A stretch of DNA of 64,000 nucleotides. Origin: a virus. Its lineage: Duplodnaviria > Heunggongvirae > Uroviricota > Caudoviricetes. A program made the translations under genes and the position numbers. Where the stretch lies: positions 1 to 64,000 of IMG/VR virus record IMGVR_UViG_3300022871_000009; one strand, written 5' to 3'. Below, one piece after another: positions 18,592 through 54,274 of the stretch (position 1 is its first letter; every line of letters starts with the position of its first letter). The notes beneath the pieces are model-generated. The model saw nothing but the letters and a program-made list of their open reading frames with translations, did no database searches and was not told where the DNA came from.

Positions 18592-18596
18592 CAGCT

Positions 18597-25223: not shown

Positions 25224-25249
25224 AAGAAGAATATTATTCTTCTTTTTTT
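25224..25249. terminator. bidirectional rho-independent terminator between convergent genes
   Basis: AAGAAGAATA/TATTCTTCTT stem flanked by A-run and T-run. Overlaps the last codons (KKEE) of the minus-strand 1798-aa gene. Confidence 0.5.
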
Positions 25250-33637: not shown

Positions 33638-35837
33638 TCTTAGAGCCTTCTGGCGCAGCGCCTAAGCTCTTGTATTTTCTCTTGGTTGTTAAATAATCAA
33701 CTTGACTTTGAGGAACCACTCTTTTTCTTCCATCTCTTTCTAAAAGAGAATAATTGGAAGTGTTAGTTGGTACTTTTGTATTTTTAGTTACTGGTATTTC
33801 TGGGGTCTTTTGATTTTCAAGTGAATTCATAGTAGGCATTTTATAAGTTTGTCCAGCGTTTATCTGGTCTGGATTCTTTATAGTTGCAGCATTAGCTTTT
33901 TGTATCGCGTCTACTGTCGTTCCATATTTTCTTGCTAAAGCTGATAAAGTATCTCCTGATTGAACCTTATAATCAGAATAAGAAGGAGTTTCTGATTGTG
34001 ATTGAGATTGTTGTTGAGATTGTGAATCTTGAGTTCCTATTTCATTCGGAGACTTGTACCCTTGAGGTGCATCTTGGTAAATAGTTTCTTCAAATGTCTC
34101 AACAGGTGTTTCAGTGGTTGTGTCACCAGGTGTATCTCCATATATAGACCCTTCTGGGATATGACTAGAAAGACCATCAATCTTTGTAAAAGCTGCTCCA
34201 GCTTTCTCTGCCTCTCTTGCTTTTTGTGCCATGAGCATTTGTTGTTGATAGCCTGTTTTCTCTGTTGAGTAGTCGAATTTTTTAGCATACATGGTCTTAT
34301 ATATCTGGCTTCTATAATTACCAGATTCATCAAGCATCGTGTCATGTACTAATTTTATCTCTTCATCAGACATATCTGGGTAGAGTTGTTTTAGATTGTC
34401 TATATTATAAAATTGCTTAGTTTCATCACTAGGAATAAGTCCCCAATCTTTAGCAGTTTGTGGGTCTTTACTAATAAAATCTTGTATTTCTTCAGGTGTT
34501 CCAGCAGTCAACAAGTGATTTCTGTGTGCTGATTGCTCTTCATCTAACTTAGTTTCACGCAATATTTCATTACTACTTCTTACATCAGAAAGATAATTAT
34601 CCATGGCTTTGTTAAATAAACCACTTTGGCCAACTCCACGTTGCCCAAAAGAAGACGTCATTTCTTGGAACTGACCCCAAGCGCTTTTAGCATCAGCAGA
34701 TAACCTTAGACCATAAGTTTTTTCTAGGTCTTTTCTAAATGTATCCCATTGATTTTGTGCCAAAGCAGCATCTTGTTCAGTTTGGGATTCAGCTTGTTGC
34801 ATCATGATGTCATACCATGCTGCTTGTATCTTTTCTGCCTCTTCTTTAAATTCTGGAGAAGTCCAATCAACAGGTTCAACTAGAGTCTTAAAAGCTTCAG
34901 CAGGAATTTGAAAAAGGGGATTATTAAATAATTCACTATCAAATCCAGCAAGGTCCATAGGAGGCATTAGATTAGCGTCAGCACGAGATTTTTGACCATC
35001 AGTAGTTTTAGCCCATTGTTCGGCTGGGGCTGTTTCATGAATACCCTTAATATCATTATAAACAGCATTGCCCTGGTTAGACAATTCTACTGCTTTTATG
35101 TCTCTATATACATCAGCTAAATTGTACCCTCCATATGTCATTGCATTTACGTATTTTGCAAGTTGGCCATCATCCATCACAGTTTCATTAAAAGTTTCTT
35201 GAGATATAGCTCCACTATTTTTTAAATCTGTTAATTTAAAACTTATCAAACTTGCTGCCAACTTCTCGTACGATGAGTCTTTTTTTGTCTGTCCATATAA
35301 ACCTACAAGTCCACTTAAATTAGATTTCGTTTGTGGCTCTTTTAGAGCAGTTCCGTCTGACCTTACTTGATATTCAGGTCCTAGCCATAGACCTTCAAAA
35401 ACATCCTGATGAGCATCCCTAACTGTTGTCTCAAGCTCATTTATATTATCAGTGACATCTTTCGGGTTTAGATTAAAATAATTTGCTACAGCTTCTATAG
35501 ATTCAAATGGACGATATTCTTTGTTCCCTTGGTCAAATACCCAAAGAGTTCCACTATTATCATCAGTGAAATCTATGATTGCCAAGTTAGCCCCTCTAAA
35601 CTCAAATCGGTACATACTTGGGTCAAATGGTGCAGGGACTTCTGTAGATTCGATAGTTTTCCCATCTTTGTCAGTTTCAGGTTCTGCTGACATAGCTACT
35701 TTCTCTCCAGGTTGTATCATACCTGGATTAGCTTGATATTGGGGATTCAATGCTAACAACTGAGACACTGTTATGCCATTTGCTTTCGCAATTTTCCACA
35801 AAGAGTCGCCTTGTTGTACTGTATATTCTGTAGGCAT
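33624..35837 (-). CDS. protein with N- and C-terminal LysM domains
   Basis: YTVQQGDSLWKIAKANGITVSQLLALNP and YKVQSGDTLSALARKYGTTVDAIQKAN match the LysM consensus. Confidence 0.7.
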   Translation of the reverse strand: MPTEYTVQQGDSLWKIAKANGITVSQLLALNPQYQANPGMIQPGEKVAMSAEPETDKDGKTIESTEVPAPFDPSMYRFEFRGANLAIIDFTDDNSGTLWVFDQGNKEYRPFESIEAVANYFNLNPKDVTDNINELETTVRDAHQDVFEGLWLGPEYQVRSDGTALKEPQTKSNLSGLVGLYGQTKKDSSYEKLAASLISFKLTDLKNSGAISQETFNETVMDDGQLAKYVNAMTYGGYNLADVYRDIKAVELSNQGNAVYNDIKGIHETAPAEQWAKTTDGQKSRADANLMPPMDLAGFDSELFNNPLFQIPAEAFKTLVEPVDWTSPEFKEEAEKIQAAWYDIMMQQAESQTEQDAALAQNQWDTFRKDLEKTYGLRLSADAKSAWGQFQEMTSSFGQRGVGQSGLFNKAMDNYLSDVRSSNEILRETKLDEEQSAHRNHLLTAGTPEEIQDFISKDPQTAKDWGLIPSDETKQFYNIDNLKQLYPDMSDEEIKLVHDTMLDESGNYRSQIYKTMYAKKFDYSTEKTGYQQQMLMAQKAREAEKAGAAFTKIDGLSSHIPEGSIYGDTPGDTTTETPVETFEETIYQDAPQGYKSPNEIGTQDSQSQQQSQSQSETPSYSDYKVQSGDTLSALARKYGTTVDAIQKANAATIKNPDQINAGQTYKMPTMNSLENQKTPEIPVTKNTKVPTNTSNYSLLERDGRKRVVPQSQVDYLTTKRKYKSLGAAPEGSKIGYL

Positions 35838-39974: not shown

Positions 39975-41366
39975 CTAGATTATTATACTTTCTGATGGTG
40001 TCCAGGAATCTAAATTACTGTTTCTTTTGATTGATGTAGTTTTCATGCGTCCAATTGCCATGTTGAATGACTCAAGTGACATTGCAGCATCGTTTCTACC
40101 TAATTTCGGAGCAGCTCTAAACATCATGTAATCGACAAGGCAAAAATGATTGTTCTCTGGCAAATCAATAGTATCGTACATTGAAGTCAGTTCGGCCCCT
40201 TTTTGTATGTATCTGATTGTATAAGTACTGGTTGCTGTCGGGGTAGGTGTGAAGCCAATATAGGCTCCTCTTAGATAGTATTTTATTGTATTGGCTGAAT
40301 CTTCATCATAAGCAGAAACTCCACTTAATTTTATAGCAGATAAAGAGACTTTATCTCCAGAATCTACTATGGAGAGCAAATCAGAGAAACTGTCTGGAAG
40401 TGCGTATTCCTTTGTTCCACTAATAATTGACAGGTCATATTCGTCAGAACCAGTATATTCTCTATTTACTAGATTTAATTCGTTTCTTGCTATCGCATAT
40501 GCTTCACTTAGCCAAGCAAAAGCATCCTCATTGGTGACAAGTTTAAGCTGTTTGTTGTTTAATAAACTGAAAAAATTCTCGATTATAGAGGATGCGGAGT
40601 TAGAATCGAAACCACCATACGGAATAGCATTTGAATTCTGCGAGGAAGACTCTGTATAAGAATTATAAAATGTAAACCAGCCAAAACCAGTTGAATTATC
40701 TGCGTCTCTGACAGATGTCAGAAATAACGATGTATCAATATCTAGATAATTTGTAAGTACATTTATATATCCAGTGCCTATTGTCTTATCACTTTCTACT
40801 ACACCAGACCCATTATCTATCTCAAAATATTTTTCTCTTACTGTTGTAACTACATAAGACCCCTTATTATTATCATCAAAATTTTCGCCATTTATTACTA
40901 TGGTATAACCATCTTGTACGTATTTATCTATTTCAGGGTTTGTACCGGTATCATCATATGTGTACCTCATTAGTGAGCCAGAAGGGTTTGTTATGTCGAA
41001 TTGTGTAGTCTCGTCTCCTAAAACAACTGTATCTCTAACTGGGTCGGTAGATGAGAAAGTTGCTGTAGTTGTGTGGAAAAACCTTACTTGGTCGTAATGT
41101 ATAATTGTGACTTTTGTACTTTCACTATGAGGGAAGCTAGTCGCGATATTTATAGTTAAAGTGTCAGAAGCACGTGTTATAGCTGTGACTCTTCTTATTT
41201 CTGCGTAAGCAGAGCCAAATTCACCTATTAAAATAAAGTCATTTGGTCTATATTCCTCGCTATTTGTAACAACCAAAGAAGTTTCACCTGATTGGTAATT
41301 AGCACTCAAATGAGAATATTTAGCATTTTGAGTTAGATTTCGATTATCTGCTGTCAATGTAGGCAT
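39975..41366 (-). CDS. hypothetical structural protein (463 aa)
   Basis: ORF preceded by the conserved promoter element. Confidence 0.4.
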   Translation of the reverse strand: MPTLTADNRNLTQNAKYSHLSANYQSGETSLVVTNSEEYRPNDFILIGEFGSAYAEIRRVTAITRASDTLTINIATSFPHSESTKVTIIHYDQVRFFHTTTATFSSTDPVRDTVVLGDETTQFDITNPSGSLMRYTYDDTGTNPEIDKYVQDGYTIVINGENFDDNNKGSYVVTTVREKYFEIDNGSGVVESDKTIGTGYINVLTNYLDIDTSLFLTSVRDADNSTGFGWFTFYNSYTESSSQNSNAIPYGGFDSNSASSIIENFFSLLNNKQLKLVTNEDAFAWLSEAYAIARNELNLVNREYTGSDEYDLSIISGTKEYALPDSFSDLLSIVDSGDKVSLSAIKLSGVSAYDEDSANTIKYYLRGAYIGFTPTPTATSTYTIRYIQKGAELTSMYDTIDLPENNHFCLVDYMMFRAAPKLGRNDAAMSLESFNMAIGRMKTTSIKRNSNLDSWTPSESIII

Positions 41367-41417: not shown

Positions 41418-44400
41418 CTAAAATCCATAGTATCCTCCTCCAAAGACTCCTTGTGTGGATATTCCTCCACGTCTTCCTAGTGTTTCTAAACCACCAGTTA
41501 TCTCCATGTCTTCTATATAGAAACTTATTGTCGATGTGCTGGAACTGGTAGAACTAGATGTACTTGATGAAGTTGATGAACTAGTAGAACTTGAGGTGCT
41601 TGAAGAAGTCGAGCTAGTTGAGCTAGATGTACTTGAACTTGTAGAGCTAGATGTGGATGAACTTGTAGAGCTAGATGTGGATGAACTTGTAGATGACGTA
41701 CTAGAAGATGTACTAGAGCTTGTAGAACTAGAGGTAGAGCTAGATGTGGATGAACTTGTAGAACTAGAGGTAGAGCTAGATGTGGATGAACTTGTAGAAC
41801 TGGAAGTAGAGCTAGATGTGGATGAACTTGTACTGGATGACGTACTAGAAGATGTTGAGCTAGATGTTGAACTTGATGTAGAACTAGAAGTTGATGAGCT
41901 TGTGCTAGAAGAAGTACTAGACGATGTTGAGCTAGATGTCGAACTAGAAGTACTAGATGATGTGCTAGAGCTAGTAGAACTGGATGTACTAGATGATGTA
42001 GATGAAGTACTAGAACTAGTAGAACTAGAAGTACTCAAACTTGTAGAACTAGATGTTGAGGAAGTGCTTGAACTAGTAGAGCTAGAAGTAGAAGAACTAG
42101 TACTAGAGGTAGAACTAGAAGTGCTTGAACTAGTAGAGCTAGAAGTAGAAGAAGTAGAACTGGATGTGGAACTAGAAGTAGAAGAGCTTGTAGAACTTGT
42201 ACTAGATGATGTACTAGAGCTAGTAGAGCTAGAAGTAGAAGAGCTTGTAGAACTTGATGTACTAGAAGAAGTACTAGAGCTAGTAGAGCTAGAAGTAGAA
42301 GAGCTTGTAGAACTTGATGTACTAGAACTGGTAGAGGAGCTAGTAGAGCTTGATGTACTAGAACTAGTAGAGCTTGATGTACTAGAACTAGTAGAGCTTG
42401 ATGTTGATGATGATGTACTAGAACTAGTACTAGAACTAGTTGACGATGATGTTGAAGAACTAGTAGAACTTGATGTGCTAGAACTAGTGGAACTTGACGT
42501 GCTAGAACTAGTGCTAGAGCTAGTTGATGATGATGTAGATGATGAAGTACTACTAGACGTGCTTGAACTAGTAGAACTAGTAGAACTCGATGTACTTGAA
42601 GTTGACGAACTAGTAGAACTAGAAGTAGATGAACTAGTAGAACTAGAAGTAGATGAAGTTGTTGTTTCCGCTAACCTTCTCTTGTAATTCCCCCATGTTA
42701 AATCTCCTACATTACCATCAGGAATAAAACTGTCTTTAACTGTAGAACTGAATCCAGAATGCTGATAGACGTTACACCCAACGGGAATAAATATTGAGTA
42801 ATTAGTAGAATAAAAATCATTTTTGTCTAAAGTGAGGCCACCAGGCAAGGTAGAAGGAGTATTAAATGTGTCTGCTATTGTAGAAGTATAACCAGAGTGT
42901 CTATATACTTTATCCGACCCTCCGTCGATACTGAATAAGCGAGCAACATTTACTGTAAAACCTTTTGGCGAGCTGCTAGGAGAAGAAAAACTATCACTGA
43001 CTGTAGATGAAAAACCATTGTGAACGTATATTTTGTCAGTACCATTATCTATACTATAGAAATTTGTATAATCAATAGTTACACCTTGAGGACTGTCACT
43101 AGGCGAAGAAAAACTGCTAAGTATAGTAGAAGTGAAACCAGAATGTCTGTATATAACATCGGAAGAACTATCTCCACTATAGACATCTCCCAAGAATGTA
43201 AGGCCATATGGAGATGTACTTGGACTACTGAAACTATCAATTACAGTGGAAGAGAACCCAGAATATTTATAAATTTTGTCATCAGAATACTGAACGCCCA
43301 TCAAATTCTCGTATAGTGTGGTTGTTGTAGAAGTACTAGAAGAAGTAGAACTAGAAGTACTAGACGAAGTAGATGATGTACTAGAACTGGTAGAACTAGA
43401 TGTTGATGAGGTTGTCTCAAACCTAGCGTCACCGCCCCAGGCGATACCACCTAAGTTCCCAGTTGGCTGAGCAAAACTATCTAAAATTGTAGAAGTAAAT
43501 CTGTTATATTTGACAAAATCAGACACTGAACTTCCATAGGTATCATTTGCATCTCGTGCAACGCTAGAACGGACAGTAGCAAATGAATCAGAAATTGTTG
43601 AAGTAAAACCTGAATGGCGATATATTCCATATTCAACAGAAAGAGTAGCTCCACCTGAATACAGTCTATAAAGATTACTCTCTAATCCAGAAGGATATGG
43701 TATTATTGTTCCGAAACTATCTAAAATTGTAGAAGTAAATCCTGAATGTTTATAAATTTTAGCTGTATTTTTATCTACACTATATAAATCACCAGGTTCA
43801 GTCATAGTTAATTTTACATACCGAGTCGATGGCGAAGAGAAACTATCAATCATTGTAGTAGAAAAACCAGAGTGTTTATAAATTATATTTAATCCAGCAT
43901 CCCCACTGTACATTAATTTATCTTTCCAAGAAAGTCCAGCAGGTATGTTTGCTGATGGCACCGTAAAACTATCTAAAATAGTAGAACTAAAACCAGAATA
44001 TCTAAAAAATAAATCACCATAAACATGCACTGAATAAAAGTCGTCATTCAATAGTGTTGTACTAGAGGAAGTAGAACTAGATGTGGAACTAGTAGAAGAA
44101 CTAGTAGAGCTAGAAGTAGAAGAACTTGTCGAACTCGATGTTGATGATGAAGTAGACGAAGATGTAGATGATGTTGAGCTAGAAGTACTAGAAGAAGTCG
44201 AACTAGTTGAGCTAGATGTTGAAGAACTAGTAGAACTTGTGGTAGTTATTGCTAATCTTTTTACATAGTTCTCCCAGGCAAGACCAAAATTATTTGTTGC
44301 TGTTCTGAACACATCTAAAATTGTAGAACTAAATCCTGAATGTTTATATGCTTTTCTGTAACTAGCACTTCGTGGGTTAAAAATAGTGCTGTAAAAGTCT

Positions 44401-47400
44401 ATACTATCAGTTGTAAACCCACCAGGCCGTGTCCCTGGAGCAGCGAAACTATCTGATATCGTTGATGTGAATCCTGAATGTCTATACATTCTATCACTAC
44501 CGTCAATCAGACTAAACAACCTATACTTATTTACCGCTATATCTCTAGGATTGATAGCTTCAGCCGCAAAACTATCAGAAATTGTTGAAGAAAAACCGCT
44601 GTGGATGTAAATTTTTTCAGTGGTCAAGTCAGTGCTATACATCCTGTCTCTATCCGCTTCTAAGCCGTATGTTTCACTAGCAGCAGCAGCAAAATTATCA
44701 AGTAGTGTAGAACTAAATCCTGAAAAGTGATAAATAAGGTTGGTATTGTAGTTAGTACTATATAAATCTTTATTAAATGCTACACCTAACGAGCCAATTG
44801 CACTAACACCCCCTAAGCTCTCTAAAATAGTAGAACTAAATCCTGAATATTTGTAGATAATAGAAGGGGATATCGCTATCAAATTATCATCATACAATAT
44901 AGAGGTTGAACTTGATGTAGATGAACTTGTAGAACTTGATGTTGATGAGGTTGAAGAACTTGTGCTTGAACTTGTAGAACTTGATGTTGATGAAGTACTA
45001 GAACTTGTTGAACTAGAGGTTGAGCTAGATGTGCTAGAAGATGTACTAGAAGAAGTAGAACTAGAAGTACTAGAAGTACTAGAACTAGTAGAACTAGAAG
45101 TACTAGAACTTGTTGAACTAGAAGTTGATGATGAAGTTGATGAACTAGTAGAACTAGTAGAACTTGATGTACTAGAAGAAGTAGAAGAACTAGTTGAAGA
45201 AGTACTAGAAGAAGTAGAACTTGATGTACTAGAAGAAGTACTAGAAGTAGAAGAACTAGTTGAAGAAGTAGAAGTTGAACTAGATGTACTTGATGTACTA
45301 GAAGAAGTTGAGCTTGAAGTAGATGAGCTCGTTGAAGAAGTACTAGAACTTGTAGAACTAGATGTTGATGAACTTGTTGAAGATGTACTAGAACTTGTTG
45401 AACTAGAAGTACTAGAAGTGCTAGACGAAGTTGATGAACTTGTAGAACTAGAAGTAGATGAACTTGTAGAACTAGAAGTAGATGATGAAGTACTCGATGA
45501 GGTACTAGAACTTGTTGAACTAGAAGTACTAGAAGAAGTTGAACTAGATGTTGATGAACTTGTAGAACTAGAAGTAGATGAACTTGTAGAACTAGAAGTA
45601 GATGAACTTGTAGAACTAGAAGTACTTGAAGAAGTACTGGAAGTAGACGAACTAGTCGAACTAGATGTAGAAGATGAAGTTGAACTAGAAGTTGACGAAC
45701 TTGTTGAACTAGAAGTAGAAGAACTGGTAGAAGAAGTACTAGAACTTGTGCTTGAACTTGTAGAACTAGAAGTGCTTGAACTTGTAGAACTAGAAGTGCT
45801 TGAACTTGTTGAACTAGAAGTTGAACTTGTACTTGATGACGTACTAGAAGACGTACTAGAACTTGTAGAGCTAGATGTGCTTGATGACGTACTAGAGCTA
45901 GTTGAACTAGATGTAGAACTAGAAGTTGATGAGCTCGTGCTAGAAGAAGTAGAACTAGAAGTAGATGAACTTGTAGAACTAGTAGAACTAGAAGTAGATG
46001 AGCTCGTGCTTGATGATGTACTAGAAGACGTACTAGAACTTGTTGAACTAGATGTTGAAGAACTTGTACTTGATGATGTAGATGAACTAGTACTAGAAGA
46101 AGTAGAACTTGATGTAGAAGAACTTGTAGAAGATGTTGTGCTAATTTCTCTACTCCAAATATTATCCCATTCTACTCCTAATAGATATTCAGGTGTACCA
46201 TCGAATGAATCCATTATAGTAGTACTAAATCCTGCGTGTTTATAGGAATAGGCACTATTACCATCTGTAGTATATATGTGATACCCATCAAATGTTAAAC
46301 CAGCAATATCTGGAGTGACAGCTGCCATGCTATTTAAGACAGTAGAACTAAAACCAGAATGTTTATATACTTTTTCTGTTGCATCGTCAGCGGAATAAAT
46401 ATTTTTTCCGTCTAATGTTATATCTAACGAACCACTACTAGGAGTTGAGAAACTGTTTAAAATTGTAGAACTAAAACCAGAATGCCTATATAAGACATCG
46501 CTGTCTATATCTCCAGAATAAATTCTATCGTCTCCCCAAGTTAACCCCCACGGTTTAATTGAAGGAGAAGAAAAACTATCTGAAACAGTTGAACTAAAAC
46601 CAGAATGTTTAAATATTCTATTAAGACCGACATCAGATGTATAGGAATCTTCTCCATCAGAAGTAACGCCAAAACCATACGAAGATGGGGAACTAAAACT
46701 ATCAGTAATTGTGGATGAAAAACCTGAATATTTGAATACCTCTGTGTTCCAGTAGTATCCTATTCCAATATAATTATTTGTTTCTAATCTTCCACCATAA
46801 TCCATGTAGTCGATGCCAGAACCTTGGTTGGCTACACCTGTAAAGCTATCCAAAACAGTAGATGTAAATCCAGAATGTTTGTAGAATTCGTCAGGAGATT
46901 GCTCAGCGGTAATAAAATGTTGGCCAGTGTAAGTAAGTCCTGTACGTGAGCCAACTGCTGCGAAACTCTCTAAGATTGTTGATGTAAATCCAGAATGTTT
47001 GTAAACTTTATCTATGCCTGTATCTGTACTATATAAGTCAGTTGCATCGTAGGTTAAATCGTATGGGTTCAAATTTGGACTAGAAAAACTATCACTAATC
47101 GTAGATGAGTAACCGCTGTGTTTATAAATTTGGTCTGATACACCGTCTGTGCTATATAATGTATCTTTTTGAACTGTCAAACCTCTAGGGTCAGCAGATG
47201 GTGATGCAAAACTATCTAAAATTGTAGATGTAAATCCAGAATGTTGATATATATATCCTGCCAAATCTCCTGACAAAATATATTTGCTATCCCATGTTAC
47301 ACCACGAGGAGCAGTACTTGGAGTTGAAAAACTATCTACTACTGTAGAACTGAATCCTGAATATTTGTATACCTTACTACTAATAGCGTTATCATCAATC

Positions 47401-50400
47401 TCTATTAATTCGTCGAATATAATTGTGGTAGAGGAACTAGTTGAACTAGAAGTAGAAGAACTAGTTGAAGATGTGCTTGATGATGTGCTAGAACTTGTAG
47501 AGCTAGATGTTGAACTTGATGTACTAGAACTAGTTGAACTTGAAGTACTAGAAGTACTAGATGATGTACTAGAAGAAGTACTAGAAGTAGAAGAACTAGT
47601 AGAACTAGAAGTACTAGATGATGTAGAGGATGTACTAGAACTAGTTGAACTAGAAGTAGAAGAACTAGTAGAACTTGTACTAGACGATGTACTAGAAGTT
47701 GAAGTAGAGGAACTAGTTGAACTAGTAGAACTAGAAGTTGATGAACTAGTAGAACTGGAAGTACTAGATGTACTTGATGATGTAGAACTAGATGTACTTG
47801 ATGAAGTTGATGAGCTAGTAGAACTAGATGTACTAGAAGATGTACTCGAACTAGTAGAGCTAGAAGTAGATGATGTTGATGAACTAGTAGAACTAGATGT
47901 AGATGATGATGTACTAGAACTTGTAGAACTTGATGTGCTGGATGTAGTTTCAGCTGTTCTTGACCAATAATCTTCCCATGTAATGCCACGGCTATCGGTC
48001 CCAATTGCCGATGTATCTATTGTGTCTATAATTGTAGAAGAAAAACCTCTGTGCTTATTAACACCGTAGTCTTTTGTATTATAAAGATTTTTTCCATCCC
48101 ATGTGATACCGACCCCAGTGGCACCCTCAAAACTATCTACAACAGTAGAACTAAATCCAGAGTATTTGAAAATAGCTGCATCAGGAAGATTCTGAGCATA
48201 TATATTTGCTCCATCCATTGTTATATCTGCAGGTAAGAATTGTGTAAATGAATCTAGAATAGTAGAACTAAACCCAGAATGTCTGTATATTTTATCCCAA
48301 TAATCAGAACTATAAATTCTTTCATCTCCGTAAACAACACCCCAAACTGACTTAGGCATGCCGAAACTATCTAAAATAGTAGAGCTAAATCCAGAATGGT
48401 GATATATGTCACGTGTAGAATAATTAGCACTATAAATATCAAAGCCATCGTACGAAAGTCCTGAAGGACTAGTAGAAGGAGAGCCGAATGAATCTAACAC
48501 TGTTGATGAGAATCCACTAAATTTATATATCTTATCAGTATCATCGTTAGTCATCATTAAATTTTCGATGCCGAGTCTCTTTCCTATACTTTCATATTCT
48601 ATACCTGTAGGTGTAGTTGAAGGAGTACTAAAACTACTCACAATTGTTGATGTAAATCCTGAATGTTTGTACATTTTTCCTGGAGGACCACTTGCATAAA
48701 TATCTCCTTCTTTCAAAGTAATGCCGACTGATGGGAAGTTAGCCAGATTGGTAAAACTACCCAATATAGTTGATGTGAATCCTGAATGTTTGTAGACTGT
48801 TTCTGTAAAGTAATCTGAACTATACGTATCATCCCCATCTTGTGTGATACCAGTAGGTGCATTTGAAGGGCTGTTGAAGCTGTCAGAGATAGTAGTAGAG
48901 AACCCAGAATGCTGGTAAAGTTTTCCAGCAGTATAATCTACACTATAAATATTTACTGTATCATGTGTTAATCCTCTTGGGGCAATTGATGGGCTGCTAA
49001 AACTATCTAAGATAACCGAACTAAACCCAGAATGTTTATACATTTTTGTGACTAACATGTCCATGTCAGAATCAGAACTGTAAGCATTTACGCCGTCCCA
49101 AGTTACGCCCTCTGGCACAGGAGAAGGACTGCTAAAACTGTCAGAAATTGTGGAAGAGAATCCTACATGTCTGTAAAGTTTTCCGCTAATAGAATCTGCA
49201 CTCAAGAAGTTATCAAACAAAATTGTTGTCGAACTGGAAGTTGATGAGCTTGTGCTAGAAGAAGTCGAACTAGAAGTTGAAGAGCTTGTAGAACTAGAAG
49301 TAGAGGAAGTAGTAGAAGAACTTGTTGAGCTAGAAGTAGAGGAGCTAGTTGAACTAGAGGTAGAGGAGCTAGTCGAACTAGTTGAACTAGATGTACTAGA
49401 AGAAGTGCTAGAGCTTGTTGAGCTAGAGGTACTAGAAGAAGTAGAACTTGTAGAACTAGAAGTTGATGAACTTGTGCTAGAACTAGTAGAACTAGAAGTA
49501 CTTGTTGTAGTTGTTGTGCCTACTCTAGATGAGTAATGACCCCAAGTGATGTCAAAATCATAATCGCTAGGAATGAAACTATCTAATATTGTAGATGAAA
49601 AACCAGAGTGTTTATAATCCAATCTAGATTCACTAACCCATGGTAAAGCATTAGTAGAATAAATATATTTTCCATCGTATGCCAATCCACGAGGCATTGA
49701 AGACGGAGATGCGAAGCTACTTTGGATTGTAGAAGTAAATCCAGAATGTTGATAAATTTTATCAGAAGCAGTATCTGTACTAAATAATCTATATTTATTA
49801 GAAGTAAGTCCATTCGGAGCGCTTGATGGACTGCTAAAACTGTCTGCAATTGTGGAACTAAACCCTAAATGTTGGTATATCTTATCTGAAACATAATCAC
49901 TACTAAATAAAGCAGTATCATTTATAGTTACACCACCCAGATATCCACTTGGAGAACTAAAACTATCTAGAATTGTTGTTGAAAAACCAGAGTGTTTGTA
50001 CACTGCGTCATTAGTACTTACAAAATCACCAGCTGTATAAAGATACGTTTTGTCTTTAGTAACTCCAGTTGTATATAGAGCAGCTGCAAAACTATCTTTC
50101 ACTGTAGAAGAAAATCCAGAATATTTATAAACATTATGGACATCTCCAGTATTTAGTCCAATCGAAATTAAATCGTCTAATAGAGAAGTGGAACTAGATG
50201 TACTAGAAGAAGTTGAACTAGATGTACTAGAACTGGTAGAAGATGATGTGGATGAACTAGTAGAGCTAGTACTTGAACTAGTAGAGCTAGTAGAAGATGA
50301 AGTACTAGAAGAAGTTGAACTAGAAGTACTAGAAGTAGTAGTTGTAGAATAAAATGAAACTCTTTTATTATAGTTATCCCAAGTAAATCCATAAATAGAA

Positions 50401-52412
50401 GGATTAAAGTAAAATGATAATGAATCTAATATAGTTGTACTAAATCCTGCGTGTTTATACGCATATCGTGTTACTGCATCACTAGAATAAAAATTATTTT
50501 TATTAGTTGTTAGTGCTGTTGTATAATTAGCAGGGGGTTTAAGATAATCTTTAAGTGTTGATGAAAAACCAGAATGTTTATATATTTTGTCAGACACATT
50601 ATCAGTACTATATAAATTATAATAATCTAATGTAACATCTTTTAAATTTATGCTAGGAGATGAAAAACTATTTAAAACTGTGGATGAAAAACCAGAATAA
50701 TGATATATTCTTCCACGGTCAGGTGCACAAAAAAGTGCACCGTTTATTGCTAAACCTCTCACAACACGAGTATTAGAACCAGAGAAACTATCCAGTACAG
50801 TTGTACTAAATCCAGAATGTTTGTAAATTTGGTGACTAATTCCAGTTTCTCTAGAATATAAATAATTTAAATCTTTAGTAACTCCGTTAGATGATGATTC
50901 TACAGTAGGAGGAATTATAGATTCAATAACTGTAGTAGAAAAACCACTAAACTTATAAATTAATTTATCAGAACACGCAGCAATCAAATTATCTAGAAAT
51001 AATGATGTACTTGAACTAGTGGAGCTAGACGTTGACGAACTTGTTGAACTTGTAGAAGAACTAGTAGAACTCGTAGAACTAGATGTACTAGAACTTGTTG
51101 AAGAACTAGAAGTAGATAAGCTAGTCGAACTAGAAGTGGATGAACTAGTCGAACTAGAAGTGGATGAACTAGTAGAACTAGAAGTTGAGGAACTAGTAGA
51201 ACTCGATGTTGAGGAACTAGTAGAACTTGATGTAGAACTTGATGTACTAGAAGAAGTCGAACTAGAAGTAGACGAGCTAGTAGAACTAGTAGAGCTTGAT
51301 GTTGAGGAGCTAGTAGAACTTGAAGTGCTAGAAGATGTACTAGAACTAGTAGAGCTAGAAGTTGAAGACGACGTACTCGATGTTGAAGAACTAGTAGAAC
51401 TAGATGTTGAAGAGCTAGTAGAACTTGATGTTGAAGAGCTAGTAGAACTTGATGTTGAAGAGCTAGTAGAACTTGATGTAGAAGATGATGTACTTGAAGA
51501 AGTCGAACTAGAAGTAGAAGAACTAGTTGACGATGTACTGGAAGAAGTCGAACTAGAAGTAGATGAGCTAGTTGACGATGTACTCGAAGAAGTCGAACTA
51601 GATGTACTAGAGCTAGTAGAACTAGTAGAAGAACTAGTAGATGATGAAGTAGAAGATGTGGTATATCTAGCTGCAGCATCCTGCCATGAGGCTGCTGTAG
51701 AATAGGTTGATGAGTCAAAACTATCTAAAATTGTGGATGAAAATCCTGCATGTTTATAAACATCTCCAGGTGTAAAGTCAGAACTAAAAATATTAGTTCC
51801 ATCACCAGACATATCACCAATGTTGTCACCTGGTGAAGAGAAACTATCGGTAATTGTAGTAGAGAATCCAGAATGTTTAAATAATGAATCAGGAGTATTA
51901 CCATCTGCGCTATAAAAAATTCCAGATACATATGTAAAGCCCTCTGGTCTAGTAGAAGGGCCAGTAAAACTATCTAACACCGTAGAACTGAATCCATCAT
52001 GTTTATATATTTTACTAAGAGACACATCTGTACTATAAGTATTAGTCCCATCATCTGTGACAGCATACGTTTCTGTGCCTGGAGCTGAAAAGCTGTCGCT
52101 AATTGTAGTAGAAAATCCTGAATGTTTATAGACTCTTTCCGAATTCGCATCTGCAGACAAAACACCAGTAGTTGAATATTCAACTCCAAAAGGAAAAGTA
52201 CTTGGAGTAGAAAAACTATCTATTATTGTAGAACTGAATCCAGAATACTTATAAATTTGTTGGAGTGAGTATTCAGAAGTAATTGTATTATTACTATCTC
52301 CAGCAGCTTTAGACACCTCTTCATTATCAACAAAAAGATTACCTTTAATTGCTTCAAGGTAATCTTCGTCTGATAACTCGTCTGAATTTTTATGGTCGAG
52401 GTGGTCCGTCAT
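41418..52412 (-). CDS. giant 3664-aa modular fibre protein
   Basis: About 50 copies of a 38-42-aa repeat around (I/V)YKHSGFSSTILDSF...P.G(L/V)T.DG.N.YS.D. They fall into blocks of 5,5,5,10,10,5,5,5. Each block is capped by a (L/I)TW(D/E).Y..R motif and followed by an (SSST)n tract of about 30 to over 300 residues. One continuous ORF. Confidence 0.7.
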   Translation of the reverse strand: MTDHLDHKNSDELSDEDYLEAIKGNLFVDNEEVSKAAGDSNNTITSEYSLQQIYKYSGFSSTIIDSFSTPSTFPFGVEYSTTGVLSADANSERVYKHSGFSTTISDSFSAPGTETYAVTDDGTNTYSTDVSLSKIYKHDGFSSTVLDSFTGPSTRPEGFTYVSGIFYSADGNTPDSLFKHSGFSTTITDSFSSPGDNIGDMSGDGTNIFSSDFTPGDVYKHAGFSSTILDSFDSSTYSTAASWQDAAARYTTSSTSSSTSSSTSSTSSSTSSSTSSSTSSTSSSTSSSTSSSTSSTSSSTSSSTSSSTSSSTSSSTSSSTSSSTSSSTSSSTSSSTSSSTSSSTSSTSSSTSSSTSSSTSSSTSSSTSSSTSSSTSSTSSSTSSSTSSSTSSSTSSSTSSSTSSSTSSSTSSSTSSSTSSSTSSSTSSSTSLSTSSSSTSSSTSSSTSSTSSSTSSTSSSTSSSTSSSTSLFLDNLIAACSDKLIYKFSGFSTTVIESIIPPTVESSSNGVTKDLNYLYSRETGISHQIYKHSGFSTTVLDSFSGSNTRVVRGLAINGALFCAPDRGRIYHYSGFSSTVLNSFSSPSINLKDVTLDYYNLYSTDNVSDKIYKHSGFSSTLKDYLKPPANYTTALTTNKNNFYSSDAVTRYAYKHAGFSTTILDSLSFYFNPSIYGFTWDNYNKRVSFYSTTTTSSTSSSTSSSTSSSTSSTSSSTSSTSSSTSSSTSSSTSSSTSSSTSSSTSLLDDLISIGLNTGDVHNVYKYSGFSSTVKDSFAAALYTTGVTKDKTYLYTAGDFVSTNDAVYKHSGFSTTILDSFSSPSGYLGGVTINDTALFSSDYVSDKIYQHLGFSSTIADSFSSPSSAPNGLTSNKYRLFSTDTASDKIYQHSGFTSTIQSSFASPSSMPRGLAYDGKYIYSTNALPWVSESRLDYKHSGFSSTILDSFIPSDYDFDITWGHYSSRVGTTTTTSTSSSTSSSTSSSTSSSTSSTSSSTSSSTSSSTSSSTSSSTSSTSSSTSSSTSSSTSSSTSSSTTSSTSSSTSSSTSSSTSSSTSSSTSSSTTILFDNFLSADSISGKLYRHVGFSSTISDSFSSPSPVPEGVTWDGVNAYSSDSDMDMLVTKMYKHSGFSSVILDSFSSPSIAPRGLTHDTVNIYSVDYTAGKLYQHSGFSTTISDSFNSPSNAPTGITQDGDDTYSSDYFTETVYKHSGFTSTILGSFTNLANFPSVGITLKEGDIYASGPPGKMYKHSGFTSTIVSSFSTPSTTPTGIEYESIGKRLGIENLMMTNDDTDKIYKFSGFSSTVLDSFGSPSTSPSGLSYDGFDIYSANYSTRDIYHHSGFSSTILDSFGMPKSVWGVVYGDERIYSSDYWDKIYRHSGFSSTILDSFTQFLPADITMDGANIYAQNLPDAAIFKYSGFSSTVVDSFEGATGVGITWDGKNLYNTKDYGVNKHRGFSSTIIDTIDTSAIGTDSRGITWEDYWSRTAETTSSTSSSTSSSTSSSTSSSTSSSTSSTSSSTSSSTSSSTSSSTSSSTSSSTSSSTSSSTSSTSSSTSSSTSSSTSSTSSSTSTSSTSSSTSSTSSSTSSSTSSSTSSTSSSTSSSTSSSTSSTSSSTSSSTSSTSSSTSSSTSSSTSSSTSSSTSSSTSSTSSSTSSSTSSSTTIIFDELIEIDDNAISSKVYKYSGFSSTVVDSFSTPSTAPRGVTWDSKYILSGDLAGYIYQHSGFTSTILDSFASPSADPRGLTVQKDTLYSTDGVSDQIYKHSGYSSTISDSFSSPNLNPYDLTYDATDLYSTDTGIDKVYKHSGFTSTILESFAAVGSRTGLTYTGQHFITAEQSPDEFYKHSGFTSTVLDSFTGVANQGSGIDYMDYGGRLETNNYIGIGYYWNTEVFKYSGFSSTITDSFSSPSSYGFGVTSDGEDSYTSDVGLNRIFKHSGFSSTVSDSFSSPSIKPWGLTWGDDRIYSGDIDSDVLYRHSGFSSTILNSFSTPSSGSLDITLDGKNIYSADDATEKVYKHSGFSSTVLNSMAAVTPDIAGLTFDGYHIYTTDGNSAYSYKHAGFSTTIMDSFDGTPEYLLGVEWDNIWSREISTTSSTSSSTSSSTSSSTSSSTSSSTSSSTSSSTSSSTSSSTSSSTSSSTSSSTSSTSSSTSSSTSSSTSSSTSSSTSSSTSSSTSSSTSSSTSSSTSSSTSSSTSSTSSSTSSSTSSSTSSSTSSSTSSSTSSSTSSTSSSTSSSTSSSTSSSTSSSTSSSTSSSTSSTSSSTSSSTSSSTSSSTSSSTSSSTSSSTSSSTSSSTSSSTSSSTSSSTSSSTSSSTSSSTSSSTSSSTSSSTSSTSSSTSSSTSSTSSSTSSSTSSSTSSTSSSTSSSTSSSTSSTSSSTSTSSTSSSTSSTSSSTSSSTSSSTSSTSSSTSSSTSSSTSSTSSSTSSSTSSSTSSSTSSSTSSSTSSTSSSTSSSTSSSTSSSTSSSTSSSTSSTSSSTSSSTSSSTSSTSSSTSSSTSSSTSILYDDNLIAISPSIIYKYSGFSSTILESLGGVSAIGSLGVAFNKDLYSTNYNTNLIYHFSGFSSTLLDNFAAAASETYGLEADRDRMYSTDLTTEKIYIHSGFSSTISDSFAAEAINPRDIAVNKYRLFSLIDGSDRMYRHSGFTSTISDSFAAPGTRPGGFTTDSIDFYSTIFNPRSASYRKAYKHSGFSSTILDVFRTATNNFGLAWENYVKRLAITTTSSTSSSTSSSTSSTSSSTSSSTSSTSSSTSSSTSSSTSSSTSSSTSSSTSSTSSSTSSSTTLLNDDFYSVHVYGDLFFRYSGFSSTILDSFTVPSANIPAGLSWKDKLMYSGDAGLNIIYKHSGFSTTMIDSFSSPSTRYVKLTMTEPGDLYSVDKNTAKIYKHSGFTSTILDSFGTIIPYPSGLESNLYRLYSGGATLSVEYGIYRHSGFTSTISDSFATVRSSVARDANDTYGSSVSDFVKYNRFTSTILDSFAQPTGNLGGIAWGGDARFETTSSTSSSTSSSTSSTSSSTSSSTSSSTSTTTTLYENLMGVQYSDDKIYKYSGFSSTVIDSFSSPSTSPYGLTFLGDVYSGDSSSDVIYRHSGFTSTILSSFSSPSDSPQGVTIDYTNFYSIDNGTDKIYVHNGFSSTVSDSFSSPSSSPKGFTVNVARLFSIDGGSDKVYRHSGYTSTIADTFNTPSTLPGGLTLDKNDFYSTNYSIFIPVGCNVYQHSGFSSTVKDSFIPDGNVGDLTWGNYKRRLAETTTSSTSSSTSSSTSSSTSSSTSSTSSSTSSTSSSTSSSTSSSTSSSTSSSTSSSTSSSTSSSTSSSTSSSTSSSTSSSTSSSTSSSTSSSTSSSTSSSTSSSTSSSTSSSTSSSTSSSTSSSTSSSTSSSTSSSTSSSTSSSTSSSTSSSTSSSTSSTSSSTSSSTSSSTSSTSSSTSSSTSSSTSSTSSSTSSSTSSSTSSTSSSTSLSTSSSTSSSTSSTSSSTSSSTSSSTSSSTSSSTSSSTSSSTSSSTSSSTSSSTSSSTSSSTSSSTSSSTSSSTSSSTSSSTSSSTSSSTSSSTSSSTSSSTSSSTSSSTSSSTSSTSSSTSSSTSSSTSSSTSSSTSSSTSSTSSSTSSSTSSSTSSSTSSSTSSSTSTISFYIEDMEITGGLETLGRRGGISTQGVFGGGYYGF
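41521..42660. repeat. (AGT/AGA/ACT)n low-complexity DNA encoding the C-terminal (SSST)n tract (approximate bounds)
   Basis: Imperfect triplet repeats. Produces a spurious antisense E/L/V-rich ORF at 41536..42687. Confidence 0.7.
44890..46150. repeat. (SSST)n-encoding triplet-repeat tract (approximate)
   Basis: Same repeat class. Spurious antisense ORF 44962..46245. Confidence 0.7.
47425..47950. repeat. (SSST)n-encoding triplet-repeat tract (approximate)
   Basis: Same repeat class. Spurious ORFs 47284..47970 (+) and 47405..48004 (-). Confidence 0.7.
50990..51660. repeat. (SSST)n-encoding triplet-repeat tract (approximate)
   Basis: Same repeat class. Spurious ORFs 51019..51705 and 50993..51718. 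Shorter tracts lie near 43320-43430, 44070-44260, 49225-49510 and 50190-50340. Confidence 0.7.
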
Positions 52413-53802
52413 AACTTGGACGCTGTGACGTTACCTTCAGTAGAAGGTCGTTCACGCTTTTAATGTCCAAGGTTTTCATATGTTTACAAAGTAAACCGAA
52501 ATGAGTATATAGTTTGTATCCCAATTTCTGGGCTTGTTGTGAAAATACAAAATCTTCTGAATATTCGACAGTTCCGTTAGAATGGTAGGTAAAGTAAAAT
52601 GGTCTATCCATCTTCTCTAAAACCTCTCTCTTAATCATAAACATTCCACCTGTGACTACATCAGTCTCTTCGACTCCAGAACCGTAATACGGCCTGTATT
52701 TGCCCTCTGAGTCGTATCTGTGAGCCACTGGTATAGGTGCCATAAGCCCATCATCATCAACTTTCGTCGTTAGACAGGTTGGGGCCACTACGTCCTTATC
52801 AGCTTTGATAAGTTCTCTCAGTGTCTCTAAAGGAGGAATAATATCATTATCAATCATCACAAGATAATCAAAATAATCTTCTAGAAAGCTTTTTACAATA
52901 AAGTTCCGGGCATTATCCAATGGAAACATGTGTGACGCAGGGAATATCTTAACGACAAACTCTGGGTCGTGTGTCCATTGAATCAGCCTCATGGCCAGTT
53001 CAATATGTAATTTACCATCTGCTGTAGGTAGGCCTATGAAAATCCTAGGCTTTTCGCCTAGCTCATCTTTCCACTTAGCACGGTGTTTATTATATTGGCC
53101 AACAGCATACTTCTTAGAGTAGTCGACATCGTGGTCGAACAATTCTCTAAAAGCAGCTGAACCATAATGATACATGAACGAGCTTCGCACGGCTCCAATT
53201 TTGTAACCAAGCTTTTTCACTCTAAGACATATATCATTGTCATCGCCACCACCAGTACCAAATCTCTCGTCTAAGATGTGTCCTTCTCCCAAACCGAATT
53301 CTTTATTATGAGAAACCAGTTTATCAACTACTTCTCTTGTCATTGGGACACACACACCTTTTACCTCAGGAGCCTCTTCTATGCCGCCGAGATGAGAGTA
53401 TTCAATACTTTGTTTACTATCGGCCTCGCCTATTAGCGGTGCCAATATACCGTACTCTGGATTTTTCTTAAACGCTTCAACGATTTTCTCTATCCAACCT
53501 GGAACGCAGACAACGTCTGAATTCAAAAGAACTACATATTCACTATCGGGGGATACTTTAGCAAAACCTGCATTTATGGCACCGGTGTAACCCTTAGCTT
53601 CTTCATGATAGACTGACGCTGCAAAGGTATACTTTGATAACATCTCTTTCATCTCATCATCTTTTCCGTCTTGGACAATGATGAGCTCTAAGTTTGGGGT
53701 GTAACCGAATACGCTTTCAATCGCTACTCTGGTCAAATCAGGTCTAAACCTGACTGGCATTATTATTGAAACCCTCGGAAATGAATTTAAAATTTCCTTC
53801 AT
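52390..53802 (-). CDS. tandem two-domain glycosyltransferase (two GT-A/GT2-like halves)
   Basis: N-terminal half SIIMPVRFRPDLTRVAIESV...IIVQDG (GT2). Second half IFIGLPTADGKLH...VMIDNDIIPP. Immediately upstream of the giant fibre gene, with overlapping stop and start. Confidence 0.6.
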   Translation of the reverse strand: MKEILNSFPRVSIIMPVRFRPDLTRVAIESVFGYTPNLELIIVQDGKDDEMKEMLSKYTFAASVYHEEAKGYTGAINAGFAKVSPDSEYVVLLNSDVVCVPGWIEKIVEAFKKNPEYGILAPLIGEADSKQSIEYSHLGGIEEAPEVKGVCVPMTREVVDKLVSHNKEFGLGEGHILDERFGTGGGDDNDICLRVKKLGYKIGAVRSSFMYHYGSAAFRELFDHDVDYSKKYAVGQYNKHRAKWKDELGEKPRIFIGLPTADGKLHIELAMRLIQWTHDPEFVVKIFPASHMFPLDNARNFIVKSFLEDYFDYLVMIDNDIIPPLETLRELIKADKDVVAPTCLTTKVDDDGLMAPIPVAHRYDSEGKYRPYYGSGVEETDVVTGGMFMIKREVLEKMDRPFYFTYHSNGTVEYSEDFVFSQQAQKLGYKLYTHFGLLCKHMKTLDIKSVNDLLLKVTSQRPSYDGPPRP

Positions 53803-54274
53803 ATGCTTTTATTTCATTTATTTCATATAGGACATCATCATAGATATGTGAATTAACAATGATGTCTTGATTATACTCGCCAATCTGCCGAAGAGGCTGA
53901 ATTCGTGATTGGTGAGCCACATACCAAAAACCCATATCCCTTAATATCGGATATGTGCTTGCGGTAATTTGAAACCCAGGTGCTCTAAACCCGAATTTGT
54001 TAGGTAGGAGTGACGATAGTCTGCCATAAGATTCTTTTATTAATTCTTCGCGATTATCTCGCTCACATTCAGGTGGGTCGTCGTGCAACCAACCATGAAT
54101 TCCTACCTCTACCCAGTCTTTATTTTTAACTAGCCAGTTCTCAATCAATGAGTCCACTTCTCCAGCTATAGGAAAGACTGTAACTTTAAAATCTGGACGA
54201 ACTATTTTAAACTCCTCCAGTTTGTACAAATTACTAATGTATCTCTTTGATATATCATCAACAGTGAAATACAT
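53744..54274 (-). CDS. hypothetical protein (possible carbohydrate deacetylase-like)
   Basis: 176-aa ORF. Weak by-eye resemblance only (GIHGWLHDD). Confidence 0.3.
   Translation of the reverse strand: MYFTVDDISKRYISNLYKLEEFKIVRPDFKVTVFPIAGEVDSLIENWLVKNKDWVEVGIHGWLHDDPPECERDNREELIKESYGRLSSLLPNKFGFRAPGFQITASTYPILRDMGFWYVAHQSRIQPLRQIGEYNQDIIVNSHIYDDVLYEINEIKAYEGNFKFISEGFNNNASQV

Follow-up and report, generated by a model that had tools for sequence, protein, structure and literature searches.

A giant phage protein with ten predicted β-propellers on serine/threonine spacers, and the neighboring sugar-gene island that may decorate it

Why should a phage encode a protein of 3,664 amino acids (aa) in which runs of serine and threonine (S/T) alternate with blocks of tandem repeats, and can such a gene be real? 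The gene in question lies within a 64,000-nucleotide (nt) stretch of viral DNA, positions 1 to 64,000 of IMG/VR record IMGVR_UViG_3300022871_000009, which we refer to as the window. We find that the gene is, to near certainty, real and reproducible, that structural models assign its product ten five-bladed β-propellers strung on eight S/T tracts, and that it stands next to an island of sugar-modification genes whose partner glycosyltransferase recurs beside related propeller genes in other phages. From this arrangement we infer both a location and a modification, and we lean, with modest confidence, toward a virion-surface, O-glycosylated adhesin built as beads on a string.

Inspection of the translation revealed 50 copies of a repeat, 49 of them matching a regular expression and one degenerate. 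Their modal length is 41 aa (22/50) and their consensus YKHSGFSSTILDSFSSPSTNPRGLTWDGYNLYSTDYGSDKI, in which G, T and F are kept in 49, 49 and 48 of the 50 copies; the motif YKHSGFSSTILDSF is particular to this protein family as compared with NHL and YWTD propellers. The repeats are grouped into eight blocks of 5, 5, 5, 10, 10, 5, 5 and 5, and every 5-repeat unit opens with a hydrophobic strand (LFLDNLI, LLDDLIS, ILFDNFL or alike) and closes with G(I/L)(T/E)W(D/E)xYxxR. The eight S/T tracts measure 220, 55, 98, 175, 414, 64, 33 and 379 aa, which amounts to 1,438 aa or 39% of the protein; 1,436 of these residues are Ser or Thr, both exceptions are Leu, and the Ser runs are mostly three long, giving an (SSST)n pattern. 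An ORF (open reading frame) scan found no S/T run of seven or more in any other ORF of the 64-kb window. A first-pass annotation, made by a model from the letters and their reading frames, had described one continuous 11-kb ORF with about 50 repeats of 38-42 aa in the same block order, (L/I)TW(D/E).Y..R caps and pure Ser/Thr (SSST)n linkers, and parsing of the translation bears out each of these points, with 10,995 nt free of any break, the cap at the end of each 5-repeat unit and linkers of 33-414 aa holding just two other residues. The unmodified protein has a computed mass of 374 kDa and a pI of 4.7. A sequence scan of the whole protein detected no signal peptide, transmembrane (TM) segment or LPXTG motif; the N-terminus is acidic, the highest 19-residue hydropathy (1.42) falls within a propeller, and the C-terminus ends in ...GGGYYGF. 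Along the gene, the features run as follows:

41418..52412, minus strand: giant ORF, 10,995 nt, ATG start, 3,664 aa, uninterrupted
52296..52412, minus strand: N-terminal acidic leader, aa 1-39, MTDHLDHKNSDELSDEDYLEAIKGNLF...; its start overlaps the upstream glycosyltransferase stop by 23 nt
51663..52295, minus strand: propeller U1, aa 40-250, 5 repeats
51003..51662, minus strand: S/T linker 1, aa 251-470, 220 aa
50349..51002, minus strand: propeller U2, aa 471-688
50184..50348, minus strand: S/T linker 2, aa 689-743, 55 aa, constant length in all assemblies
49518..50183, minus strand: propeller U3, aa 744-965
49224..49517, minus strand: S/T linker 3, aa 966-1063, 98 aa, constant length in all assemblies
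47949..49223, minus strand: double block B4, U4a and U4b abutting without an S/T linker, aa 1064-1488
47424..47948, minus strand: S/T linker 4, aa 1489-1663, 175 aa, constant length in all assemblies
46143..47423, minus strand: double block B5, U5a and U5b, aa 1664-2090, modeled as two 20-strand halves
44901..46142, minus strand: S/T linker 5, aa 2091-2504, 414 aa
44247..44900, minus strand: propeller U6, aa 2505-2722
44055..44246, minus strand: S/T linker 6, aa 2723-2786, 64 aa
43416..44054, minus strand: propeller U7, aa 2787-2999, the most degenerate
43317..43415, minus strand: S/T linker 7, aa 3000-3032, 33 aa
42666..43316, minus strand: propeller U8, aa 3033-3249, the modeled unit
41529..42665, minus strand: S/T linker 8, aa 3250-3628, 379 aa
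41421..41528, minus strand: C-terminal 36-aa tail ISFYIEDMEITGGLETLGRRGGISTQGVFGGGYYGF, non-repetitive, identical in all assemblies; a candidate virion anchor

A gene of this make-up invites the suspicion that assembly or repeat collapse, or an erroneous fusion of genes, has produced it. Several contigs do end inside linker 1 or later, and the long linkers differ in length between assemblies. Set against this, the ORF is complete in three full, independent metagenome assemblies from different samples (3,664, 3,636 and 3,604 aa), all in one frame with the same domain order, and it stays open up to the sequence end in seven further partial loci; exact look-ups of neighbor proteins place the same phage in JGI 3300025736 and 3300005935, in the ENA ERZ273... 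series and in Logan SRR7529183. Across assemblies the propeller blocks are near-identical, with only 4-5 substitutions and one two-codon indel, and the lengths of the five shorter linkers never vary. The three longest linkers do vary, and every difference is in frame: 220/212/204 aa for linker 1, 414/399/361 aa for linker 5 and 379/351/344 aa for linker 8, which reflects either true population polymorphism or assembler behavior. In the linker DNA, each of the six Ser and four Thr codons occurs at a frequency similar to that in the window's other genes, the longest exact repeat found within the ORF is 56 nt, and tandem-repeat identity at the DNA level is only 60-98%; the diverse codons and imperfect repeats indicate that the linker DNA is not a simple microsatellite. 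By our own arithmetic, which assumes at least three stops per 64 codons, a frame of 3,664 codons would stay open by chance with a probability of about 1e-76. We thus regard an artefactual origin as scarcely credible, and the two mishaps that the first-pass annotation had warned of, a frame split by frameshifts and a collapse of the repeats, are both contradicted by the open frame of the three full assemblies.

The two-codon indel lies in frame in the last blade of U2 (aa 665-666, window 50412..50417 region), a unit that is 218 aa long in the window and in ERZ27315921 and 216 aa long in L001, L002 and ERZ27315525. An apparent signal of hypervariation, resembling that of a diversity-generating retroelement (25 non-synonymous changes against one synonymous, with 24 clustered amino-acid changes), was rejected as the register shift that this indel causes.

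Public gene calls on independent contigs (L001-L004, L008 and L009) replace the giant gene by antisense shadow ORFs of 383, 427 and 228 aa, composed almost only of E, L, V and D and located inside the S/T-linker DNA. The equivalent frames in the window are:

41536..42687, 44962..46245, 47284..47970 and 51019..51705, plus strand: antisense shadow ORFs, gene calls in linker DNA

Because gene callers took these antisense ORFs, the giant protein has no exact record in a collection of 15 billion proteins. Proteins similar to it are probably under-counted in general, and where standard callers make the same exchange they would be systematically missing from protein databases.

What fold do the repeats adopt? 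An AlphaFold2 model of U8 (aa 3033-3249), computed from an alignment of the ten internal units and their homologues, has a mean pLDDT (predicted local distance difference test) of 95.6 and a pTM (predicted template modeling score) of 0.91, and contains 20 strands that form five blades of four strands each. In sequence register, the N-terminal strand joins three C-terminal strands and so completes the last blade, closing the ring. The B5 model (pLDDT 89.4, pTM 0.64) comprises two sets of 20 strands on either side of a low-confidence hinge at block residues 212-215, and neither modeled unit has any predicted helical segment. We considered and rejected a single ten-bladed ring for each 10-repeat block: each half has closure strands of its own, and the low-confidence hinge at the midpoint goes with the lower pTM. 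Since B5 resolves into two hinged propellers, and since each half of a double block has its own closure motifs, the protein is predicted, with near certainty as to fold, to carry ten five-bladed propellers. The first-pass annotation had spoken of eight or more five-bladed propellers; the models retain its blade number and set the count of units at ten.

In structural comparison, the best match of the U8 fold is the five-bladed glutaminyl cyclase, at 10-12% identity in the structural alignment, and the closest folds include further enzymes, namely GH43 glycosidases and SMP30-type lactonases, with identities of 5-19% over the set; Foldseek template modeling scores of only 0.5-0.65 indicate that there is no close structural twin. 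Likeness to glutaminyl cyclase (PF05096) is confined to the five-bladed fold, with no family membership by sequence, and a search of PDB sequences with the family profile retrieved no cyclase. That search did return the PknD NHL sensor domain of M. tuberculosis (1RWI, E 8.4e-11) and the PknD-derived Pizza6 designs (E 4e-11). Like the NHL propellers (PknD 1RWI, TRIM2/TRIM71, PF01436), the giant protein is built from four-stranded repeats of about 40-45 aa; unlike these and the YWTD propellers (LRP6, LDLR), which have six blades, its rings have five, and the curated Pfam NHL model misses it. An hmmscan of the whole protein against Pfam-A (E <= 10) yielded no propeller family, and PHROGs held nothing informative for the propeller blocks. 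On profile evidence, the repeat is a divergent NHL-type blade set in a five-blade ring. The NHL/YWTD assignment proposed in the first pass is thus upheld by the PknD profile match and qualified by the missing Pfam match and the blade number, and the structure model that it had called for gave the expected five-bladed propeller with glutaminyl cyclase, rather than a tachylectin, as nearest fold.

The propeller is not restricted to this protein. A search with one 10-repeat block returned 141 metagenomic relatives, mostly of 230-740 aa with one or two units, the unit often N-terminal, and all those named by their source are called 'hypothetical protein'; in an exhaustive profile search, 7,035 cluster representatives passed E <= 1e-3 and 560 passed the stricter E <= 1e-30. 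Multi-unit relatives include P0121 (2,124 aa), P0123 (1,694 aa) and P0125 (1,992 aa, with S/T linkers). Two relatives, P0080 and P0012, are encoded within tail modules, after the tape-measure gene; P0080 has an N-terminal propeller and a C-terminal region that, by an unscanned impression, resembles a tail-protein domain. Matches in BFVD include a protein named 'baseplate wedge subunit' and uncharacterized phage proteins. In L020 (391-10827, plus strand), propeller ORFs of 947, 542 and 1,995 aa follow one another and contain many S/T tracts, the longest of 153 aa. The family, with its 560 representatives at the stricter threshold and no Pfam model, appears common in the fibers and tails of environmental-virome phages. 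The first-pass statement that no described phage protein has this architecture stands as regards the literature, where searches on related terms brought up no description, and fails as regards nature, where shorter and longer proteins with the same propeller, some of them S/T- or T/S-linked, occur in many uncultivated phages.

What, then, might act on the S/T tracts? Directly upstream of the giant gene lie 13 co-directional genes, separated by gaps of -74 to +70 nt, the last of which encodes a 470-aa glycosyltransferase and extends 23 nt into the beginning of the giant gene. The sugar-related loci of the window are:

52390..53802, minus strand: two-domain GT-A glycosyltransferase, 470 aa; N-half GT2, C-half (aa ~250-460) A197/Anp1-like with the DxD motif MIDNDI
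53744..54274, minus strand: polysaccharide-deacetylase-like protein, 176 aa
54281..63402, minus strand: remaining island genes, co-directional sugar genes and unmatched genes
17761..20313, plus strand: RmlD-like, RmlB and RmlA-like dTDP-6-deoxyhexose (deoxythymidine diphosphate sugar) genes; RmlB scores 421 bits against a cut-off of 365

The island encodes four GT2 enzymes (the 470-aa one included), two of them fused to methyltransferases, together with a Methyltransf_24 protein, a LicD-like phosphotransferase, a glycerol-3-phosphate-cytidylyltransferase-like protein and the deacetylase-like protein; five of the 13 genes have no family match. All 13 proteins lack TM segments, which is easier to reconcile with protein glycosylation in the cytoplasm than with polysaccharide work at the membrane, and family scans of the island proteins found no Sec components and no GtfA/GtfB or SecA2/SecY2 genes. 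In the A197-like domain the IDxD aspartates are invariant in 19 homologues. Its profile, compared with the sequences of solved structures, is closest to A197 of Sulfolobus turreted icosahedral virus (STIV; E 2.5e-5) and then to yeast Mnn9 (E 3.5e-3), and members of the group match the Pfam Anp1 or GT2 models. STIV A197 (PDB 2C0N), a minimal viral GT-A enzyme, is essential and 'possibly glycosylates' the capsid protein of STIV (PMC10551542). Like the phage domain, A197 is a viral DxD protein of about 200 aa thought to act on a virion protein; it differs in belonging to an archaeal virus, the similarity is distant, and the phage domain is often fused to a GT2 or deacetylase-like domain. Outside the island, the window encodes another short-chain dehydrogenase/reductase-type epimerase/dehydratase and a fifth GT2 (2093..2995, minus strand, and 9251..10099, plus strand), besides the Rml enzymes, which may supply donors to the island; no RmlC was found among the window ORFs scanned.

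Is this proximity a peculiarity of one genome? Scanning IMG/VR with the ten internal units gave 28 loci, of which 25 include upstream sequence and are informative. In 18 of the 25, a count drawn from related phages without phylogenetic correction, an A197-like GT-A domain precedes the propeller gene by no more than 300 nt; two more loci have one nearby, 1.6 kb upstream in the first case and adjoining the propeller array at its downstream end in the second. The domain either forms a protein of about 200 aa by itself or is fused to an N-terminal GT2 or to a deacetylase-like domain, and a deacetylase-like gene often precedes the glycosyltransferase in the other propeller loci. In two divergent phages the gene order of the window recurs. 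Locus L016 (ENA ERZ27252253), where a full-length orthologue of the 470-aa glycosyltransferase is encoded (28% identity, E 2e-46), has eleven sugar-modification genes ahead of that for P0005, a protein with a T-rich linker and two propellers; locus L018 (JGI 3300025018) has six sugar genes, then P0011, with two propellers and a 46-aa T/S linker, then an SU10-type adaptor. The pairing is also present in L019, a phage with a tape-measure gene, and is thus not limited to one morphotype. This conserved neighborhood strengthens the link to glycosylation.

Two side observations bear on these loci. The cassette order deacetylase-like gene, A197/Anp1-like GT-A gene, propeller gene is seen among L016, L018, L019 and L021-L046, in SU10-like phages as well as in the one with a tape-measure gene. 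In L016 the gene after P0005 (L016:11692-14583, plus strand) encodes a propeller, a (TTTSTS)n linker of about 260-290 aa, a 370-aa domain and a T/S tract that runs off the contig end.

Gene position also suggests where the protein resides. The gene downstream is:

39975..41366, minus strand: head-tail adaptor, SU10_adaptor PF24175, 51 nt downstream of the giant ORF

In related contigs an SU10-type major capsid protein gene lies about 9 kb further upstream, outside the window, so that the operon reads capsid gene, 13 island genes, giant gene, adaptor gene. The arrangement claimed in the first pass, with a glycosyltransferase island upstream and tail/baseplate-like genes downstream, is confirmed. 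The giant gene thus sits in the slot of SU10 gp10, flanked there by gp9 (capsid) and gp11 (adaptor); the gp10 product has a predicted Ig-like fold similar to a minor capsid protein and to a head-fiber domain, and is unseen in the SU10 head reconstruction (PMC9509320). We consider virion association of the giant protein likely, and its glycosylation somewhat probable. As to the adaptor itself, the SU10-type match spans residues 259-445 only, which leaves an extra N-terminal region of about 258 residues; aa 29-107 are common to the L018 adaptor (30% identity), and the extra region could be a docking domain for a fiber.

A mechanism can be proposed from these elements. The giant gene is co-transcribed from one tightly packed, co-directional late operon along with the genes for the 13 soluble island proteins, most of them sugar-modifying, and for the adaptor. 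Ser/Thr O-glycosylation of the giant protein may be started in the host cytoplasm by the A197-like GT-A enzyme encoded next to it, and extension and modification of the glycan may fall to the other GT2s, the methyltransferases, the deacetylase-like protein and the LicD/cytidylyltransferase pair, with donors that would include dTDP-6-deoxyhexose from the phage's RmlA/B/D-like enzymes. The glycans would make the spacers stiff, protease-resistant, mucin-like rods, giving a contour length that we estimate at about 0.35-0.5 micrometre (0.25-0.35 nm per residue). One terminus, most likely the invariant 36-aa C-terminal tail, would fix the protein to the virion near the capsid or adaptor; in relatives of the P0080 type, with their N-terminal propeller, the C-terminal tail-protein-like region would be the virion-bound part. 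The ten propellers could then serve as carbohydrate-binding beads of low affinity and high avidity that widen the capture radius for host envelope or polymer matrices. First contact through a head filament is the mode of phage phiCbK. Head-first or filament-mediated contact has been discussed for HFTV1 and RcGTA (PMC9973310, where phiCbK is also cited).

Several observations weigh against this picture. The C-terminal tails of the positional orthologues P0005 and P0011 are dissimilar to that of the giant protein, and no curated family or solved structure indicates a ligand. P0080 has a 116-aa S/T linker, yet its 13-kb contig contains no glycosyltransferase. The shared gene order is partly inherited, the sampled loci being related phages, and glycosylation, virion incorporation and ligand binding are all deductions about a phage known from metagenomes alone. 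The pairing of enzyme and propeller also holds for propeller proteins without S/T linkers, so that the conserved acceptor could be the propeller itself, or the enzyme may serve otherwise. This last point leads to an alternative that we judge possible though doubtful, in which the A197-like enzyme targets the propeller (for example Ser/Thr of the invariant SGFSST or SSPS loops) or builds its ligand, and the S/T tracts are secondary acceptors or plain spacers: adjacency is mostly to propeller proteins without any S/T tract, and every blade carries a near-invariant Ser/Thr-rich motif. However, several of the conserved Ser residues lie inside predicted strands and may be structural, and the largest sets of sugar genes (6 to at least 13) accompany linker-bearing proteins only, namely those of the window, L016 and L018, a small sample.

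A rather unlikely alternative dispenses with modification of the protein altogether. The tracts would be unmodified, disordered entropic spacers, and the island would act elsewhere, either on glycans of the host envelope or polymers of the teichoic-acid type, as happens when phages convert the serotype or exclude superinfection, or in the hypermodification of phage DNA. Bactoprenol-linked envelope modification of the Gtr type normally requires membrane proteins, and the island encodes none with a membrane segment (0/13); moreover, the island is placed within the structural operon between capsid and adaptor genes instead of the replication module, its adjacency to propeller genes is kept across divergent phages, and no hydroxymethylase- or thymidylate-synthase-like gene appeared among the window ORFs in a scan that was not exhaustive. 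What speaks for this alternative is the presence of LicD and glycerol-3-phosphate-cytidylyltransferase-like genes, which recall teichoic-acid chemistry, and the precedent of phage glycosyltransferases that modify DNA and host serotype (PMC12619734). The nearest folds of the propeller raise another thought, that the beads are tethered enzymes (glycosidase-, lactonase- or cyclase-like depolymerases) digesting capsule or matrix, in keeping with the propeller depolymerases that phages do possess, such as endosialidases (PMC4901313). We hold this to be improbable: identity to the enzyme structures is only 5-19%, no Pfam enzyme family matches by sequence, and the conserved residues are alike in all five blades and all ten units, a pattern that would be typical of structural or multivalent-binding repeats rather than of one asymmetric active site. 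Placement outside the virion, as an intracellular or lysis-released decoy, matrix binder or scaffold, appears more improbable still; nothing speaks for it positively beyond the fact that virion association is deduced from gene position alone, and the co-directional late operon with the gene between capsid and adaptor, together with relatives located in tail modules, speaks against it. The O-glycosylated virion adhesin therefore stays our preferred reading. An extended form of it, more tentative and in our estimate somewhat short of even, is a self-contained mucin-type glycoprotein system in which the cassette has expanded to the 13-gene island, the phage Rml genes and a 3,664-aa fiber, whose 1,438 Ser/Thr tract positions would carry a methylated, phospho-polyol-bearing 6-deoxyhexose glycan: a half-micrometre 'phage mucin' with ten lectin beads.

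How does such a system compare with known ones? The closest described propeller is that of phi11 Gp45, which is five-bladed, likewise nearest to glutaminyl cyclase and a proposed GlcNAc-binding platform (PMC4901313). The five-blade fold and the closure by an N-terminal strand match the description in that paper, with no direct structural or sequence hit to Gp45; its trimeric coiled-coil stem and C-terminal towers were not found here, where only S/T tracts and short termini lie outside the propellers. The tracts of bacterial serine-rich repeat proteins (SRRPs) are dipeptide repeats, whereas those of the giant protein are pure (SSST)n. The two nonetheless share long Ser-rich tracts flanking binding modules and adjacent glycosyltransferase genes (Fap1, GspB and SraP; PMC6973325, PMC7948813), and SRRP glycosylation is described as intracellular and preceding export (PMC7948813). 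The giant protein lacks the accessory Sec (aSec) signal peptide and LPXTG motif, it is unaccompanied by SecA2/SecY2 and GtfA/GtfB (GT-B) genes, and it has ten binding modules within a phage structural operon where SRRPs have one module. The SRRP comparison made in the first pass is thus apt as an analogy and does not extend to membership.

For mycobacteriophages, O-glycosylation of virions by phage enzymes has been reported (Freeman et al. 2023, Cell Host Microbe 31:1216, as described in PMC12619734). In both cases the phage encodes glycosyltransferases, here next to its structural genes; in mycobacteriophages, according to that description, virion proteins are decorated, on short C-terminal segments of capsid and tail-tube subunits, whereas here the presumed acceptor is a giant fiber with 1,438 residues of tract and a far larger gene set, known from genes alone. 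T4 Hoc and the phiCbK filament make a weak, multivalent first contact with surfaces. These and other head fibers (phi29 gp8.5, SU10 gp10) have a role similar to the one proposed here, but are Ig-like or helical, tens to hundreds of residues long and devoid of propeller arrays or S/T spacers. The gene is not a size record, since short-tailed Microbacterium phages of cluster EK have genes of more than 13 kb encoding more than 4,400 aa (PMC7302621). Each ingredient therefore has a precedent, in the phi11 propeller, the giant EK genes, mycobacteriophage glycosylation and the SRRPs; what is new is the combination and its scale, with ten propellers strung along eight spacers of pure S/T, a sugar island of 11 kb and a glycosyltransferase-propeller cassette conserved in many uncultivated phages. 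Searching the literature on related terms, we came across no account of such a protein or cassette.

Making and decorating this fiber apparently takes up a large share of the 64-kb window (11 kb of giant gene, 11 kb of island and the separate sugar genes). If the tracts are glycosylated, phage virion glycosylation would extend from a few capsid and tail-tube residues to a mucin-scale glycoprotein, and if the 'phage mucin' reading is true, the fiber would be the first mucin-like glycoprotein from a bacterial virus and would represent a new way of adsorbing at long range. The A197-like enzyme and its propeller partner would form a compact enzyme/substrate pair for studying cytoplasmic protein O-glycosylation, and possibly a tool for glyco-engineering.

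The source is an uncultivated, SU10-like short-tailed phage in which the giant gene is late. A tblastn search with the adaptor against 50,697 GenBank phages gave no match, indicating that the phage has no cultured relative; RmlB, compared with 185,579 species genomes, reaches at most 56% identity, with matches scattered across many phyla. The window contains no tRNA genes. Its replication genes encode a replication protein O, a Prim-Pol/DnaB helicase, an SNF2 helicase and SbcCD-like proteins. The giant gene is followed downstream by the adaptor, a LysM protein, an M23 peptidase and large unmatched proteins; among the giant gene's neighbors, PHROGs were informative for the adaptor and the LysM protein only, and the 783-, 665- and 584-aa tail genes downstream of the adaptor gave no Pfam match, one weak PHROG of unknown function and no PDB-sequence match. 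The tail module ends with an ORF of 1,798 aa (25234..30630, minus strand), which has no significant Pfam or PHROG match and one sub-threshold Pfam hit. Within the same module (32993..35837, minus strand), a 737-aa protein has LysM at both ends and is accompanied by a 214-aa M23 peptidase; the two are probably virion-associated peptidoglycan binders or hydrolases that act in entry. Among the early and replication genes is one for a 449-aa SPFH/Band 7 protein (14929..16278, plus strand), which is unusual for a phage.

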